A stretch of DNA of 63,252 nucleotides, the filler included, from Candidatus Rokuibacteriota bacterium (GTDB taxonomy: Bacteria > JAUVQV01 > DATDCY01), in assembly GCA_031406795.1 (NCBI GenBank). It is 9 parts of 9 records of this genome, joined end to end, with 100 filler letters (N's around TTAATTAATTAA, not from the genome) between each part and the next. Parts side by side here need not be neighbours in the genome. Positions count along the whole stretch, not along the records: positions 38,301 to 41,602 come from JANOHV010000184.1; 8 more parts are not named here. One strand, written 5' to 3'. Made by a program: the position numbers and the translations under genes. The notes under the pieces are model-generated. The model searched no databases and was not told the DNA's origin. It was given only the letters and a program-made list of their open reading frames with translations. Positions 33,994 to 41,602 of this stretch are shown here, in pieces (position 1 is the stretch's first letter; each line of letters opens with the position of its first letter).

Positions 33994-36900
33994 TCAGCGC
34001 TTGCGGGTCATGCCGCCGAGCGGGATCGTACCCTCATAGCCGAATCGGGTCTGCCAGAAACCATCCGTGCTCTTGAAGACATACCAGTTGCCACCGGGCG
34101 GGTAGTAACAGCCGATGTCCGCGCGCCCGTCGCCATCGAAGTCTCCGACCACGGGTTCCGTTCCCGCATAGCCGAAGGTCGTTTGCCAGAACCCTTCCGT
34201 GCTCTTGAAAATGTACCAGTTGCCCCCGGCGGGATCGTAGCAGCCGATGTCGTCCCGGCCGTCCCCGTCGAAATCGCCGACCACGGGGAGGGTGCCTTTG
34301 TACCCGAAGGTCGTCTCCCAGAAACCCTCCGTGCTCTTGAAGAGATACCAGTTGCCGCCGACCTCAGAGTAGACACCGACGTCCTTCCGGCCGTCCCCGT
34401 CGAAGTCACCGACCACCGGGGTGCCGGCGAAGCCGACTGCAGTCTCCCGGAAACCCTCAGTGCTCATCGAGAGAAACCACTTCCCGTTCCGGGGGTCGTA
34501 GACCCCGATGTCGTCCCGACCGTCGGCGTCGAAGTCTCCCGCAATGGGGATGGTCCCGGAATAGCCGAAGCTCGACTGCCAGAATCCTTCCTGGCTCTTC
34601 ATGACGTACCAGTGCCCGCTCTCGGGGTGGTAGCAGCCGATGTCGGTCTTCCCGTCGCCGTCGAAGTCCCCGGTGATCGGGATGGTCCCCTCGTAGCCGA
34701 AGGCCGTCGACCAGAACCCGTCCGTGCTTCTGAATTCGTACCAGTTGCCCCCGGGCGGGTAATAGCAGACGATATCCGACCTGCCGTCGCCGTCGAAATC
34801 GTTGACCGCCGCCGGAGCCAGCATGATCGCGAAGATCTTCTCCGTCCAATAGCCGGCGCCGCCCTGGTCCCGCGACCTGACCCGGATGCGGTACGCGTTC
34901 TGCATCGAATAGTCGAGCACGGCGGCGGTCTGGATCTCATTCCCCGCGATCCTGAAGGAAGCATTGTCCGCGTCCCCCGATCCGGGGACCAGCGAATAGA
35001 CGAAGGTTTCGCCGGCGTCGGCGTCCGTGGTGCTCAACGTCCCGAGGGGCAGCCCGAGGGTCGTGCCGACCGGGGGGACATCGACCAGAATGGTCTTGCT
35101 CAACGCGATGTCGGTCGGGGGATTGTCCGGCACGACGGCAGCGGACGCCGCGGAAGCCGGTCCTGTTCCGAGCGCGTTTGTCGCCGTCACGCTGAACGTA
35201 TATGCGCTGAAGTTGGCCAACCCGGTAACAACCAGTGGGCTCGCCGGACCGCTGATCGAGAAGCCGCCGCGGTCCGCAGTTGCCGTGTAGGAGATGATCG
35301 GACTGCCGCCGTCGTAAGCCGGCGCGGCGAAGTTCACGCTGACCTGACCGCTGTTGGCGAACGCGGCGCCGATGATCGGCGCGTCGGGAACGGACTTGAA
35401 CGGCGTGACGGGATTGGAAGCCGGCGACGCCGATCCGGGACCGGCGGCGTTCGTCGCGGTCACCTTGAAGGCATAGGAGATGCCGTCGGTCAAGCCGGTG
35501 ATGGCGTGTCCGAGGGCCGTCGTTCCGGCATTGACGTCCACCCCGCCCGGAGGAAGCGACGCAACCGTGTAACCGGTGATCGCACTTCCGCCGTCGAACC
35601 CCGGCGCGGTGATAATCACCGTCGCCTTGGTGCTGAAGGCCGTGGTCGCGACCGGTGCGGGCGGCGCGTCGGGAACGGTGTACGGGGTGACCCGGTTCGA
35701 CGGCGCCGACGGCAGCCCGGTCCCGGCGCCATTGGCCGCGGTGACGGTGAACGTGTAGGGCACCCCGTTGGCGAGCCCGGTGATCAGATGCGTCAGCGCG
35801 GTTGAACCGGCATCGTCGTCCGCGCCCCCCGCGGGGCTGGGGAGCACGGTGTACCCGGCGATCGTGCTCCCCCCGTCAAACGCCGGAGGGGAGAAAGACA
35901 CGGTAGCCTGGGCATTGAGGGGTGTGGCCGCGGCCGAGACCAGACGTGGCTGATCCGGAACCGTGAAGGGCGTCACCGGACTCGTGGCCGCCGACGCCGG
36001 TCCCGTCGCGGCGGCATTGGTTGCGGTCACCGTGAACGTGTAGGCGGTGCCGTTGGCAAGCCCGGTGACCGTGATCGGACCGATCGGGGTGCCCGGCCCC
36101 AGGGCGGTGATGCCGCCGGGGTTCGACGTGGCGGTATAGGAGGTGATCGGACTTCCCCCGTCGAAAAGCGGTGCCGTGAAACTCACCGAGACCTGGCCGT
36201 TGGCCGGCGTGGCGGTTCCGATGGTTGGTGCTGCGGGGGCGGTAGCCCCAGCGGGAACGGCGTTCGATGGCGCCGAGGCGGGCCCGGTTCCTGCCGCGTT
36301 TGTTGCCGTAACCGTGAAGAAGTAGCTCGTGCCGTTGGTCAACCCGGGGACGGCAATCCGGAGCGGCAGCGTGAACGGAGCGGCGATGGCGCCGGTCTGG
36401 CCGCCGGGGACGGAAGTCGCGGTGTACGAGGTGACTGCGCTTCCCCCATCCGCCGCGGGTGCGGTGAAGCTCACCGTCGCCACGGTCAGGTCGGTCGTGG
36501 CGGTGACCCCGGTCGGCGCTTCGGGGATCGAGATCAGCGTGAAGGGCACGGCGGCGGTTGCGCCCGGATCAGGCGTCGGCGAGGTCAGGAAGGTTCTGAC
36601 GTCGACGGCGACGGTGTGCGGCCCGAGGGCCGTGCCCGAGGGGACGGTCCACGACTTCGCATAGCTGTAGTCCTGCACCACGGCCCCATCGAAGGAGAAG
36701 CGATACTGCCCGGTCGGCACCGGCGGGGCCGCGCTGAACGTCGCCTGGGCGTTGAACTTCACCGGCGCAGCGTGAGGGCTGGCGAATTCTGGAGTGAGCG
36801 TGACGCCGGTGGCGGGCTGCCAGGAGGACGTGAGGACCGTCACCGGTGGCGTCGCAGCCGAGTCGCCGAAGGAGTTGTAGGCGACAACCGCGTAGGTATA

Positions 36901-38200
36901 CGTCGAACTGGGAATCACGTTCTTGTCCGTATAGCTCTGGAATTCGTACGTCAGCGTGTCGCCGACCGGCGTCGTCGAGAGGATCGGCATCGTGGCGATG
37001 AGGTCGGCGGAGGCGGGGGTGCAGGGACTTTCGCAGCGCAGCACCTTGAAACCGGTCGCCCTGCTGTAATCGTCGGTATCCGGCGTGGGGGGCACCGGTA
37101 GCGTGCGGAACTGGGTGTCCGTCCAGAGGAGGACGTTCTGCTGAAGCGGCGTCGCCACCGCGAACGCGCCCGGCACGTTCGGCGCGGCGCCCGGTTCATG
37201 CAGGATGATCGTCCGCATCATGTCGGCCTCCTCGTGGGAGAGGATGTGACAGTGCCAGACGTACTCGGCGAAGAAATTGGTCACCTGATTCGTGATCGGC
37301 GGATCGACAAGCAGACCCGTCACCGGATCGATCTGCGTGAAGCCCAGGCTCGAGCCGGGCGGCAGGCTCGGGTTCAGCAGTCGGCTGCTGGCGGGCAGGG
37401 AGAACGGCAGGTTCTTCGGCGCCTTAGGACGCAGCGCGACGATCGTGTCTTCCAGCGGGCTGATCCGCACGGTATCCTTCCAGCCCAGTTCATTCGGATC
37501 CGGCGGCCGGATGAAACCGTCCCAGCCGACCCGGTTGAGGATCTGCACGTCGAAGAGGTGGAAGTGAACCGGGTGCGTGTCGACGCCGTTCTGGGTGATC
37601 TTCCAGATTTGCGGCTCGCCGTCCAGCACGATCTCGGTGACCGGATCGACGTAGTTCTGAAGCATGAAGGTCTTCACGCCGGCGACGGTTACGGCCAGTT
37701 CGAGGCCCAGCTTGGCGCTCATCCGCCCGAATTCGTCGAAGACCTCGCCCATCTCGTCCTGGATGGCCTTGGACTGCATGAAGTAATTGTTCACCGGGAC
37801 CTGGTCGGTCGTGACGAAGGAGACGCTCTCGTCACCGATGCGCGACACGCCCCAATACGGGAAAGCGGTCGGGAAGGTCTTGTTATAGGCCGTGTCGTAG
37901 GCCGATTGGGCGACGATCACTGGATTCTGGGATTTTGCGAACACGCCGGGCACGAAGTCCCCCGCGGCGGCGCTGCCGGTCGACCTGAAAGCATTCTCCA
38001 GGTTCGTCAGCCAGGTCGGGTTGAAGTCGTTGACAGGAGCGGCGCCGCCGCTTCCCGAGACCCTGATCTGCATGATCGTGCGGGTGTTGGGGCCGAAGCC
38101 AACCGGCGTGCCGGCGGACCCGCCGATATCGGTCAGGTCTTCCGCGCCGGTGAAATAATCGTAGTGCGGATCCAGGGCCGGATAGGGGGCGGGGGAGTCA
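33994..38200 (-). CDS. Large multicopper oxidase with FN3, cadherin and FG-GAP modules (OmpB/MofA-like; 5'-partial)
   Basis: HPVHFH and WHCHILSHEEADMM copper motifs; repeated DGGS.IT.Y...YTFTVTA.N FN3 units; GDFDGDGR.DIG repeats. Confidence 0.88.
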
Positions 38201-38300: not shown

Positions 38301-38615
38301 GACGAAAGCGCCCGGCTGGGCGACCGACTCGAGGTGCCCGAGAACGATTCCCATGATCCTCGAGCCGATCCCCTTGCGCTGGTACTTCGGCACGACGAGG
38401 ACGTCCTGGATCAGGAAAGTCAGCACGCCGTCGCCGATCACCCGCGCGCAGGCCACCGGCGCCTCGCCGTCCATGAGCACGACCACGTTGAAGAGATCGT
38501 CGCGCACCGCCCGCGCGGCCACCGGAAACCCAAGAGCCGGGAGCCCGAGTTCCTGCCGCACGTGCAGGTACTCTTGCGGCATCACTGAACGTCCGAGATA
38601 GCTGATCTTTGCCAT
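38301..38615 (-). CDS. GNAT acetyltransferase (3'-partial)
   Basis: ARVIGDG, IQDVLV.PKYQRKGIG. Confidence 0.85.
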
Positions 38616-38817
38616 GGCGCGGGATTCTACGTGCGGTGCGGGACGCTGTCAAACCCGACGCCGATTCCGAGGATCGAGGTCATCCCCCGGCTTGCGGCTT
38701 CGACGGCAACCGTGAATCACGACGAAGGCTCTTGAGTTTGCCTTCCCCAGGGCAGCTCTGCTATTGTCCACAGCTTGGGAAGGGTTTGAAAATGGTCCTG
38801 GGGAGGACTTGATCGCC

Positions 38818-40719
38818 ATGCGCGCGGGAAAAACCGGACGTGTTTTCGTCAAGAGTATCGCTCTTCTGATGTTGATCGGCGTGGCGGTCTGGGTGCGGAT
38901 CCCGGTCGCGCGGGCCATCTCGAACGCCGAACAGGCCTTTCTGTCACTGTACTTCAGCGACGACGAACTTCACGTTATCTCCTCGACACGCAGCCTGCAG
39001 TCGATCGCCCGGATCGCCGAGAACGTCACGGTCGTCACGGCCGCGGACATCGAGTTGATGAATGCGCACACGATGGTGGACGTGCTCGGGAGTGTTCCGG
39101 GGGTCGTCATGAGTACCGCGGCGCCATTCGTCAGTAATGCCATCGCGATGATTCAGGGGCCGGACATCCGGCACGTCACGGTCCTGTTGAACGGCGTACT
39201 GCTTAACAACCTGAGCGACAACGTCGCCATACTCGGCGCCATTCCCGTCCAGGACATCGCCAAGGTCGAGATCCTTAAAGGCCCCGCCTCCTCGGTCTGG
39301 GGTTCTGCGATGGGCGGGGTGGTCAACATCATCACCAAAGGCCCGGGCACCAAGGCCGTCCAGGGATCGGTCGCCCTCGACTACGGTTCGGAGAATACTG
39401 GCGACTACCGGGCCGCGATCTCCGGCAGACTCGGCGGGCTCGGCTATGCGTTCAGCGGCACGAAGTTGCGTTCCGACGGGCTGGTCGAGGGCTTCGAAGC
39501 CGATGCGGAGCATCTGAGCGCCCGGCTCGATTATGCCATCGCCGAGCGCACGAGCGCGAACTTCACGTTCTTCTACGGCGACACGAACCGCGGCGACGGC
39601 ATCGACCGGGAGTTCGACCTCTCCTTCAGCAATCGTCACAAGCACCTGGTCTCCCAGCTGGCGTTGACCTCCGCGCTCGGCCGGGCGGGCAGCCTCGACT
39701 TCGCCCTCTGGACGACGCGCTTCGACAACCGGTATTTCATGAATCAACTGAGCGATAACCTCGAACTCTCGCTCAACACCTTGAAGGAGAACCGTTCCGG
39801 CGCCAGCCTGAAGTACGCCGTGAGCACGGGCGGCCAGGATCTGGTCTTCGGCGCCGATTACTCGGCGGGAACACTCGATGCGAGCAATATCGAAGGCGCC
39901 GACCCCGAGCTGAAGCAGTGGGCCGTCTTCGCCAACGACACCATCGGCCTGGGGAACCTGACGCTAACCCCCGGGGTCCGCTACGACGACATCTCCATCG
40001 CCGAGAACTTCTGGAGCCCGAGCCTCGGGGCGACCTACCTGCTCGCCAGGGACACCCTGCTGCGGGCGACCGTCGCGAGGGGCTTTTCGATTCCCACTCC
40101 CGCCGAGACCTCGGGAGACAGCGAAATCAATCGCTACCGGGCCAACCCCGATCTCACCGTGGAGAAGATGTGGTCGTACCAGGCGGGGTTCGAATCCGGC
40201 ATTCTCGACATCTTCTGGCTGAGGCTCTCGGCCTACCGCCACGACGTGGAGGATGCCATCGCGGAGAAGTCGCTCGACAACGACTTCTTCACGAAAGTGA
40301 ACGCGGGACGGCAGCGCCGGCAGGGTTTGGATGTGGAGCTCAGGACCAAGCCGATCCATAACTTGACCCTTGCCGGCAGCGCCTGCTTCCTCGAAGTTCG
40401 GGACTTGGAAACCGATGAGCATGTGATCGATGTGCCGAAGGCGATCTACGACATGAGCCTCAAGTACGACGACCTGCGGTCCTTCCGCGCGCTGTTGAAG
40501 GGACGGTATCTGCGCATGGACGAACCCGAGAACAAGAATGCGGACATCAGCGGCGTCATCGTCGATCTCAACCTGGTCAAGAAGATCATCGAGCGCCCGG
40601 GGATTTCGCTCGAAGCTTTTGTCTCCGTTCACAATCTCCTGAATCAGTCGCAATACCACCAAGATATCTACAAGAACCCCGAGCGGTGGGTCGAGGGCGG
40701 GATCAGAGCCGCCTTCTGA
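38818..40719 (+). CDS. TonB-dependent receptor
   Basis: Plug motif VEILKGPAS.VWG..AMGGVVNIITK; beta-barrel; terminal Phe. Confidence 0.92.
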   Translation: MRAGKTGRVFVKSIALLMLIGVAVWVRIPVARAISNAEQAFLSLYFSDDELHVISSTRSLQSIARIAENVTVVTAADIELMNAHTMVDVLGSVPGVVMSTAAPFVSNAIAMIQGPDIRHVTVLLNGVLLNNLSDNVAILGAIPVQDIAKVEILKGPASSVWGSAMGGVVNIITKGPGTKAVQGSVALDYGSENTGDYRAAISGRLGGLGYAFSGTKLRSDGLVEGFEADAEHLSARLDYAIAERTSANFTFFYGDTNRGDGIDREFDLSFSNRHKHLVSQLALTSALGRAGSLDFALWTTRFDNRYFMNQLSDNLELSLNTLKENRSGASLKYAVSTGGQDLVFGADYSAGTLDASNIEGADPELKQWAVFANDTIGLGNLTLTPGVRYDDISIAENFWSPSLGATYLLARDTLLRATVARGFSIPTPAETSGDSEINRYRANPDLTVEKMWSYQAGFESGILDIFWLRLSAYRHDVEDAIAEKSLDNDFFTKVNAGRQRRQGLDVELRTKPIHNLTLAGSACFLEVRDLETDEHVIDVPKAIYDMSLKYDDLRSFRALLKGRYLRMDEPENKNADISGVIVDLNLVKKIIERPGISLEAFVSVHNLLNQSQYHQDIYKNPERWVEGGIRAAF

Positions 40720-40809
40720 CCGGACGAGCGGCTTGCGGTAACCGAGGATCCAGCCGGCGGTATTACCGGCCAGGGTCTGGCGTCGTCATCGGGGAAGGGG
40801 GGAGCGGTC

Positions 40810-40902
40810 ATGCAGCAGCGGATAGTCGTACTCGCCCAGGGTGTTCAGAAGCAGGAGATTCTCAGGCAGGCCTGTTGCTCGAGTGCGAACAACCGAGCGT
40901 AG
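40810..40902 (+). CDS. 30-aa candidate RiPP precursor (geopeptide-like; absent from the ORF track)
   Basis: GGGGAG RBS; MQQRIVVLAQGVQKQEILRQACCSSANNRA*; directly upstream of a radical SAM gene. Confidence 0.8.
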   Translation: MQQRIVVLAQGVQKQEILRQACCSSANNRA

Positions 40903-40910
40903 AGCTACCG

Positions 40911-40945
40911 GCGGCGGCGGGGGCCCAGCGTCCCCGTCGCCGTTT
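40911..40945 (+). terminator. GC-rich hairpin between peptide and maturase genes
   Basis: gcggcggcgggg...ccccgtcgccgt followed by a short T run. Confidence 0.55.
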
Positions 40946-40950
40946 CCGTC

Positions 40951-41602
40951 ATGTTGACGCGGTATCATCGCATCTTCTTCCCGCCGGAGTTTCCCGGGAA
41001 AGCCGTCCTCTTCTCCACCCGTACCTCCGCCTCGCTGCTGCTGCCCGCCGCCATGATCGGCGAGATTGAACGGGGCGCCATCGCTCCGGATGACCGCGCG
41101 ACCCTCGCCAATCACGGTTTCCTGGTCGAGGATGCCGAGGCCGAGAAGCAGCAGATGCGCGCGTTTCTCGCCGAACTCGCCGCGATGGACCGCGTCTTCA
41201 AGCCGATCGTGGTGCTGAACCTCGACTGCAACCTCGCCTGTACGTACTGCTTCGAGGGTCAACGCAAGGGGAGGCACTACCTGTCGGAGCGGACCGCGGA
41301 AAGGCTCCTGGATTTCATTCGCGATGCCGGGATCCCGGGTCGGAATGAGGTCAACGTAACGTTTTACGGCGGCGAGCCGTTGTTGAGTCTGGAGAGGCTG
41401 GCCTCCCTTGCCGGGAAGATCGGCGCGCTCGCCGCGGCGGCAGGCATCCCCTTCAGCTTCTCGTTGATCACCAACGGCACGCTGTTGACGCGCAAGAATG
41501 TGAACCGGCTGCGGCCGCTCGGTCTCAGGAGCGCCTGTGTCACGCTGGATGGTCCCCGGGACACGCACGACGCCGCGCGGCCTTTCCGCACCGGCAGCGG
41601 CA
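40951..41602 (+). CDS. Radical SAM peptide maturase (geopeptide-maturase-like; 3'-partial)
   Basis: About 80-aa N-terminal extension, CNLACTYC, FYGGEPLL, ITNGTLL, TLDGP. Confidence 0.85.

Follow-up and report, generated by a model that had tools for sequence, protein, structure and literature searches.

What does a 30-codon open reading frame (ORF) encode when it lies between the gene for a TonB-dependent receptor and that for a radical S-adenosylmethionine (SAM) enzyme? The question is raised by a 63,252-nucleotide stretch of the Candidatus Rokuibacteriota bacterium assembly GCA_031406795.1 (hereafter the window), which is a chain of contigs with spacers of Ns between them, and in which positions 38301-41602 are the 3302 bases of a single contig (C23 of this genome, G000). 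The receptor ORF, the 30-codon ORF, a hairpin and the radical SAM gene all lie on the + strand of that contig. An earlier note on this DNA had taken the small ORF and the enzyme for a candidate system producing a ribosomally synthesised and post-translationally modified peptide (RiPP), similar to the geopeptides of Geobacter relatives. We find that the locus is very probably a genuine RiPP precursor–maturase pair of the geopeptide family, in which the enzyme is a member of a named, uncharacterised protein family and the peptide is a sub-threshold relative of that family's named partner. The features of the locus are as follows.

38818..40719, + strand: TonB-dependent outer-membrane receptor (Pfam Plug and TonB_dep_Rec_b-barrel)
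40810..40902, + strand: geopeptide-type precursor, 30 residues (translation, sub-cut-off match to TIGR04229, alignment of 55 peptides)
40910..40944, + strand: GC-rich hairpin in the gap between precursor and maturase (folding energy, shuffled controls, recurrence in relatives)
40951..41602, + strand: N-terminal half, 217 residues, of a radical SAM/SPASM maturase (TIGR04280), the gene being cut by the contig end
G000:C163:3-695, outside the window: C-terminal half of the maturase (TIGR04280 positions 218-426)

A conserved Cys-Cys peptide precedes the maturase gene

Translation of 40810-40902 (+) gave exactly the 30-residue Cys-Cys peptide of the earlier note, with a GGGAG motif (a Shine-Dalgarno site) ending 5 nt upstream of its ATG, and the flanking domains (Plug and barrel on the 5′ side, Radical_SAM on the 3′ side) bore out the placement of the ORF between a TonB-dependent receptor and a radical SAM gene. 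The peptide consists of a leader containing I5-V-V-L8 (an IVVLxxG pattern) and G11, followed by Cys22-Cys23 and a 7-residue tail; its leader is notable for being neutral and Gln-rich. The only NCBIfam model that matched the peptide was TIGR04229, at 14.8 bits (E 0.018, positions 1-21 of 22). Because this score is under the curated cut-off, we call the peptide geopeptide-type rather than a member of TIGR04229. An alignment of 55 related peptides nonetheless displayed the build of that family, with a short leader, Cys-Cys and a short tail encoded directly upstream of the maturase. Only 11 of these 55 peptides reached E <= 0.1 with TIGR04229 (best E 1.5e-5), which indicates that the curated model covers a narrow part of the family and misses most of its precursors. 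When the model was scanned against the peptide's own genome, it did not recover the precursor, the top scores being 11.2 bits at other sites.

The related peptides came from a scan of 185,579 species genomes, which returned 80 loci, of which we examined 60 (L016-L075). Four of these (L040, L058, L065 and L070) had too little upstream DNA to be counted, and L072, whose enzyme was 28% identical and had no peptide, was not counted as family. A small ORF of the same build preceded the maturase gene in all 55 remaining loci, with Cys-Cys in 51 and a single Cys in 4; a conserved upstream Cys-Cys peptide, the lack of which beside enzyme homologues the earlier note had said would tell against its reading, is thus a regular companion of the enzyme. 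In the single-Cys precursors (L026, L054, L055 and L062, which include a whole Desulfurivibrionaceae group) Asn-Cys or Tyr-Cys replaces Cys-Cys, so that one Cys alone is indispensable. Across the alignment M1 and C22 were invariant and G11 and C23 were at least 90% conserved. The tails after the Cys pair ranged from 6 to 16 residues (8-10 in 45 of the 55) and followed a loose x-G-(G/A)-aromatic-x-P-x-R pattern, the precursor studied here having no aromatic residue in its tail. Compared with G003, a genome of the same genus, the codons for IVVLA differed only at synonymous third positions. Searched against 1.84 billion representative proteins in public collections, a family profile then matched 180 peptide clusters at E <= 0.001; Cys-Cys was present in all 150 clusters listed of the 180, with a profile that is itself biased to Cys-Cys. 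The small ORF at 40810-40902 merits annotation.

Two kinds of unusual precursor were seen among the relatives. Those at L023:1812-2018, L024:5755-5952 and L034:5707-5925, all from metagenome-assembled genomes (MAGs) labelled Nitrospirota, have their leader motif parted from the Cys-Cys core by 25-40 residues rich in Lys, Ala and Thr; this insert resembles histone H1 (NF038053 matched in 3 of the 55 peptides) and gives a net charge above +20. At another locus, two near-identical tandem precursor genes (L042:5636-5731 and L042:5829-5927) precede a single maturase gene.

The maturase gene is split by the assembly

The enzyme has its CX3CX2C motif at C93/C97/C100, which places about 90 residues before the radical SAM motif; the N-terminal extension described in the earlier note is therefore present, and larger than the ~80 residues given there. 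Its N-terminal half matched Pfam Radical_SAM at 53.1 bits, and Fer4_12 also (E <= 1). With TIGR04280, the NCBIfam model of the geopeptide radical SAM maturase, this half scored 238 bits over profile positions 3-218.

Position 41602 is not the end of the gene, because it is the end of contig C23. A search of the same genome with TIGR04280 placed C23:2651-3301 on profile positions 2-218 (238 bits) and C163:6-632 on positions 218-426 (306.8 bits), recovering the 3′ end that the earlier note had called missing. The final 9 bases of C23 are the initial 9 bases of C163, and when the two contigs are merged on this overlap, the sequence across the join follows the family consensus with no gap. Relative to the intact orthologue in G003, the two halves showed 66% (N half) and 69% (C half) identity. 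Moreover, assembled contigs from two sequencing runs of the same study (X2 and X3) extended 185 and 592 letters beyond 41602; a contig of a third run, X1, ended where C23 ends and may be the source of C23. From the overlap, the gap-free consensus at the join, the identity to the orthologue and the contigs that run past the break, we conclude that this apparently truncated gene is intact in the organism and is split by the assembly alone, with its missing half on C163.

The two TIGR04280 scores sum to 544.8 bits against a cut-off of 400, a sum of halves scored separately rather than of the joined protein in a single run; intact orthologues from the same genus scored 546 and 474.2 bits. The next-best NCBIfam models reached at most 94 bits, and nearly all of them describe peptide maturases, several with Cys-rich substrates. 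Judged by these profile scores the enzyme is a member of TIGR04280, and the geopeptide resemblance that the earlier note had offered proved apt for the enzyme and, at its lower score, for the peptide. The half on C163 contains nine Cys, and 8 Cys positions after the radical SAM motif were at least 90% conserved among 49 sequences; the Pfam SPASM model had no match in this half at E <= 0.001. Of the two domains for which the earlier note had suggested searching, RRE (RiPP recognition element) and SPASM, neither was matched by its Pfam model.

The maturase resembles CteB and is predicted to hold the leader

We built fold and complex models on the intact G003 orthologue, which is 66% identical to the window enzyme in the N half. 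The AlphaFold2 model (predicted local distance difference test, pLDDT, 92.3) begins with three strands (residues 8-12, 19-24 and 30-34) and a set of helices; the radical SAM barrel comes next, and the C-terminal part is rich in Cys. In the window enzyme the predicted RRE-like domain covers residues ~1-85. The best fold match of the G003 model in the PDB was CteB, over the whole length and including the N-terminal domain (Foldseek E 4e-21, template-modelling (TM) score 0.69, ~450 aligned columns). CteB was also the best PDB sequence match of the maturase (E 7e-22, ~21% identity), followed by anSME, TigE, SuiB and ChlB.

When the G003 maturase was modelled with its own 31-residue peptide, three runs gave interface scores (ipSAE) of 0.85, 0.85 and 0.84, compared with 0.04 for the best control, with a partner pLDDT of at least 66 and at least 72% of contacts common to the runs. 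Of solved complexes, 116 of 157 reach the pass mark used for such models, as do 2 of 215 mismatched pairs; passing it may reflect likeness in this case, because CteB has been solved with its peptide. In the modelled complex, enzyme residues 27-34 pair with peptide residues 5-12, which are the conserved leader motif, and peptide residues up to 26, including both Cys, contact the core and SPASM parts. The model thus supports a leader that would add as a strand to the three-stranded RRE-like sheet.

A hairpin separates the two genes

The strong hairpin that the earlier note had placed between peptide and enzyme was confirmed. It spans 40910-40944 with a 15-bp stem and a 5-nt loop (−36.9 kcal/mol, z −3.5), a stability equalled by one of 200 dinucleotide shuffles, and it ends 6 nt before the maturase ATG, within a gap of 48 nt from the precursor end to the maturase start. 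At the equivalent site in relatives, z was below −2 in 31 of 42 loci (median z −2.5, from mononucleotide shuffles), often with a U-run on the 3′ side in hosts of lower GC content. The hairpin is probably an attenuator or partial terminator that would also cover the ribosome-binding region of the maturase.

A receptor dedicated to the geopeptide cassette

The receptor ORF is open from a TTG at 38764; its likely start is the ATG at 38818, which has GGAGGA before it and a signal-peptide-like stretch after it. Pfam Plug and TonB_dep_Rec_b-barrel matched at 62.5 and 131.3 bits, respectively, and the nearest solved structures were BtuB and Cir. On all 25 NCBIfam models listed the receptor fell below the cut-off, the best being TonB-B12 at 111.4 bits versus a cut-off of 599.7.

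Orthologues of this receptor (E 1e-77 to 1e-224) adjoined the precursor gene in 52 of the 60 related loci. Among the 52 loci with at least 1 kb of upstream DNA, 49 had the receptor, and all 52 had either the receptor or a protein of the SBP_bac_5 family. The three loci without a receptor (L066, L067 and L069, from Spirochaetaceae/Spirochaetales) carry SBP_bac_5 at its position, and two Omnitrophota loci (L074 and L075) have both. In all five of these loci the SBP_bac_5 gene, of oligopeptide/nickel type, lies directly upstream of the precursor.

The reverse test covered 54 genomes, all from the class to which one of the Nitrospirota-labelled carriers belongs. The maturase was present in 19 of them and a receptor orthologue in 16, all within those 19 and each adjacent to the maturase on one contig; in the three maturase-positive genomes without a receptor, the maturase was at a contig edge or fragmentary. 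None of the 35 maturase-negative genomes of the class contained a receptor orthologue; one of them had a 28%-identical match. The co-occurrence with the receptor that the earlier note had wanted checked was thus strong in both directions. Because its orthologues in that class occur only beside the maturase, the receptor is dedicated to the geopeptide cassette.

Other members of the cassette and its distribution

Clustering the 509 ORFs of the 60 loci yielded four recurring families: the maturase, the receptor, a periplasmic binding protein of PF04392 (ABC_sub_bind), and histidine kinases. Where a locus had 3.5 kb or more of flanking DNA on each side (34 loci), the receptor was present in 33 and a kinase in all 34. 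By tblastn, the PF04392 protein was found in 44 of 59 loci, most of the others having cut flanks or SBP_bac_5 instead, and L036 lacking any despite full flanks; the cluster-based count of 26 of 34 is a lower bound, as greedy longest-ORF calling gave spurious antisense ORFs in GC-rich DNA. In the genome studied here the corresponding genes follow the second half of the maturase on C163.

G000:C163:852-1817: PF04392 binding protein, 3′ of the maturase
G000:C163, likely start 1804: HAMP-HisKA-HATPase sensor kinase, overlapping the end of the binding-protein gene
G000:C163:3391-4740: REC-AAA-HTH sigma-54 activator (response regulator)
G000:C163, after the sigma-54 activator: receiver protein
G000:C163, after the receiver protein: HD-GYP protein that binds cyclic nucleotide monophosphates

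The binding protein is an orphan, with no accompanying permease or ATPase on C163, and this genome has one copy each of the receptor and the PF04392 protein. The cassette therefore reads TonB receptor, precursor, hairpin, maturase, orphan PF04392 protein and sensor kinase, to which a sigma-54 regulator and a receiver protein are added here. Within the genus the order varies: the PF04392 gene of G003 (L016:1-96, −) lies upstream of the receptor and is divergent, whereas here it is 3′ of the maturase, so the cassette has been rearranged within one genus. Decayed or interrupted copies, with in-frame stops or fragments in the receptor or maturase, were found at G006:C2:280646-283771, G010:C6:172794-176161, G028:C7:225-3342 and G034:C1:1504759-1506369, each in a genome that has an intact copy elsewhere.

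The system reaches far beyond Geobacter, and the precursor–maturase pair is almost never alone: the TonB receptor, the orphan binding protein and the kinase travel along with it. The candidate phylum of the host comprises six genomes in the collection, and three of the other five have an intact TIGR04280 gene (474-579 bits), each with a Cys-Cys ORF upstream of the maturase and a receptor upstream of that ORF; the two without the gene are 78% and 92% complete. The cassette also occurs in MAGs labelled Nitrospirota, Desulfurivibrionaceae, Spirochaetaceae and Omnitrophota. In a quick maximum-likelihood tree of 47 enzymes, from which the N-terminal domain columns and the two window halves were left out, cassettes with basic leaders and those with acidic leaders clustered across taxon labels. 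The host genus grouped with basic-leader loci of Nitrospirota-labelled MAGs, and G005, from another family of the phylum, with acidic Geobacter-type loci. The tree thus hints that a cassette may travel as a whole, or else that the cassettes may be ancient paralogues.

A proposed mechanism and its alternatives

What, then, might the cassette do? We propose that it makes a crosslinked RiPP whose surroundings serve to take it up and sense it, an account that, taken whole and with its mechanism included, we consider evenly poised between right and wrong. The hairpin would attenuate read-through and mask the maturase start, leaving the precursor in excess over the enzyme. The leader strand I5-V-V-L8, with G11, would dock as a beta-strand on the three-stranded sheet of the N-terminal RRE-like domain, as the complex model supports. 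The CteB-like radical SAM/SPASM enzyme may then abstract a hydrogen from a residue of the tail and join that residue to a Cys sulfur, which, by homology, would close the 7-residue tail into one or two small thioether rings. The sole ground for a cross-linked Cys tail is the CteB-like homology and fold, and we give thioether chemistry at Cys an even chance.

The later steps are drawn from gene linkage. The product would exit the cytoplasm and re-enter across the outer membrane via the dedicated receptor; once imported, it might be captured by the binding protein, which has no transporter of its own and would signal to the kinase and the sigma-54 regulator. An outer-membrane importer, an orphan binding protein and a kinase so tightly and exclusively linked to the pair point to a product that acts outside the cytoplasm and is taken back in and sensed, and we put such a loop at somewhat under an even chance. 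More tentative still is the view of the cassette as a self-contained peptide signalling loop of outer-membrane-bearing anaerobes, in which release, TonB-driven re-uptake and a readout through binding protein, kinase and sigma-54 activator would form separate channels in genomes with two or three cassettes. The earlier note had left the role as metal binding or signalling; signalling gains support from the conserved orphan binding protein and kinase, whereas metal binding gains none.

Several observations weigh against parts of this account. The precursor falls short of the TIGR04229 cut-off (14.8 versus 30 bits), and the maturase lies on two contigs whose join is made by a 9-base overlap, abutting profile coordinates and an orthologue alignment. 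No PqqD/RRE domain of Pfam was found at E <= 1 in the N-terminal half of the maturase. A correlation between leader charge and RRE-domain charge (Spearman −0.51, n=46) was lost in a phylogenetically independent test, in which 3 independent pairs on supported branches gave a median p of 1, and we set charge complementarity aside as evidence. As regards the chemistry, SPASM enzymes also make C-C and C-O links and epimerise (PMC10114670), and two rings cannot be the rule throughout, as 4 loci have a single Cys. Among the clustered ORFs of the 60 loci, we found no conserved gene for an exporter, a leader peptidase or an inner-membrane importer. Nor was there a sigma-54 promoter before the receptor or precursor here, or a consistent one in 52 related loci, so a feedback loop lacks promoter evidence at this locus; a search for TGGCAC-N5-TTGCW with at most 2 mismatches gave 19 matches in the window versus 19.7 expected, the only one at the locus lying inside the Cys-Cys codons, and we dropped the idea of sigma-54 feedback. 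Finally, solved PF04392 proteins bind free aromatic amino acids (PMC10443332), and the tail of the precursor has no aromatic residue.

The last of these points also bears on an alternative that we regard as unlikely, in which an aromatic compound, a foreign peptide or some other outside cue unrelated to the geopeptide is what the receptor, binding protein and kinase detect. These proteins would then simply govern production of the geopeptide, which would be an output acting inside the cell or on the envelope rather than the ligand. Besides the free aromatic amino acids that are the known PF04392 ligands, the lack of a conserved exporter speaks for it, and a kinase with a sigma-54 regulator could drive any regulon. 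An unrelated cue, however, leaves unexplained why the receptor orthologue should occur only with the maturase and always adjacent to it (16 of 16 genomes, and none of the 35 without a maturase), and why each cassette has a receptor of its own in genomes that carry two or three. In addition, the spirochaete loci exchange the receptor for an oligopeptide-type SBP_bac_5 protein at the same position, a replacement that indicates a peptide ligand.

Import could also serve use instead of sensing. TonB receptors import the RiPP-derived compounds methanobactin and pyrroloquinoline quinone (PQQ), a PQQ transporter is among the distant matches of the receptor, and vicinal Cys could bind soft metals; the product might accordingly be a metal-binding peptide or a salvaged cofactor. 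We consider this improbable. The conserved genes of the cassette include none for an inner-membrane importer, a reductase or metal handling, the partner with which the binding protein overlaps is a kinase rather than an ABC permease, and the nearest relatives of the enzyme consume the Cys thiol in thioethers.

An antimicrobial RiPP, with the receptor linked to it for a reason such as immunity or kin uptake, is very unlikely: the tails do vary widely, and many radical SAM sactipeptides are antibiotics (PMC10114670), but no immunity, ABC exporter or peptidase genes are conserved, and the constant partners are sensing proteins. We regard as remote the idea that the small ORF is a regulatory leader peptide whose tandem Cys codons before a terminator sense Cys-tRNA supply, since, for all that a short tandem-Cys ORF and a terminator-like hairpin do lie directly upstream of the gene, across phyla it is the amino acids of the leader motif that are conserved, the DNA changing synonymously, four of the loci encode a single Cys, the N-terminal domain of the enzyme is predicted to hold the leader, a reading of the ORF reveals no anti-terminator segment, and the downstream gene is a peptide maturase rather than one for Cys biosynthesis.

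Relation to known systems

The geopeptide system of NCBIfam (TIGR04229 with TIGR04280, a hypothetical equivalog) is the closest to ours: the enzyme matches the whole TIGR04280 profile, and the peptide has the same build of hydrophobic leader strand, Gly, Cys-Cys and short tail. It differs in the sub-cut-off score of the precursor and in its host, a six-genome candidate phylum rather than Geobacter. The geopeptide families have so far stood in protein-family databases without product, chemistry or role, and our literature searches found no paper on the geopeptide/TIGR04280 system. They likewise found no description of a RiPP pheromone system with energised outer-membrane uptake. Were re-import and sensing to hold, the cassette would let diderm anaerobes, metal reducers and sulfur cyclers among them, signal by peptide, and these are groups in which little is known of signalling between cells.

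Among characterised enzymes, the best match in both sequence and fold is CteB, the thioether-forming SCIFF maturase with an N-terminal RRE (PDB 5WGG/5WHY), which shares the three-part build and a Cys-containing substrate, CteA. The identity is nevertheless ~21%, CteA has six Cys in 45 residues rather than one Cys-Cys pair with a tail of 6-16 residues, and the neighbouring genes differ, those here coding for a receptor, a binding protein and a kinase. The streptococcal streptide enzyme StrB, and TqqB, likewise combine a small precursor with a radical SAM/SPASM enzyme and are linked to cell-cell signalling (PMC10114670); those systems are Gram-positive, regulated by Rgg/SHP and make C-C or C-O links, whereas the partners here are a receptor in the outer membrane and, in the periplasm, a binding protein that goes with a kinase.

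A parallel in gene content is an uncharacterised RiPP cluster of Parabacteroides, likewise a diderm, in which genes for a precursor and a radical SAM enzyme stand together with a TonB-dependent receptor and a two-component system (PMC9389541). That cluster differs in its 61-residue precursor, peptidase-ABC exporter and nucleotidyltransferases, and looks unrelated.

Both halves of the proposed loop have counterparts in sensing systems with other ligands. The polysaccharide utilisation loci of Bacteroidetes pair a SusC-type transporter with a periplasmic hybrid two-component sensor, so that a ligand brought in by TonB-dependent transport is detected in the periplasm, and in LuxP-LuxQ a transporter-less binding protein reports to a kinase. 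Their ligands are a glycan or autoinducer 2 (AI-2), not a self-made RiPP, and the proteins are not homologous as far as tested.

Neighbouring genes in the window

We rejected the neighbouring genes of the window as parts of the system. A GNAT acetyltransferase (38304-38615, −), of which the contig start leaves a 104-residue fragment, runs divergently from the receptor gene and is not conserved with the cassette. The fibronectin/FG-GAP protein and a type II secretion F protein are on other contigs; the former (33994-38073, −) has 1359 residues, with five fibronectin type III domains, FG-GAP repeats and a multicopper-oxidase-like stretch, and is probably a large surface protein.

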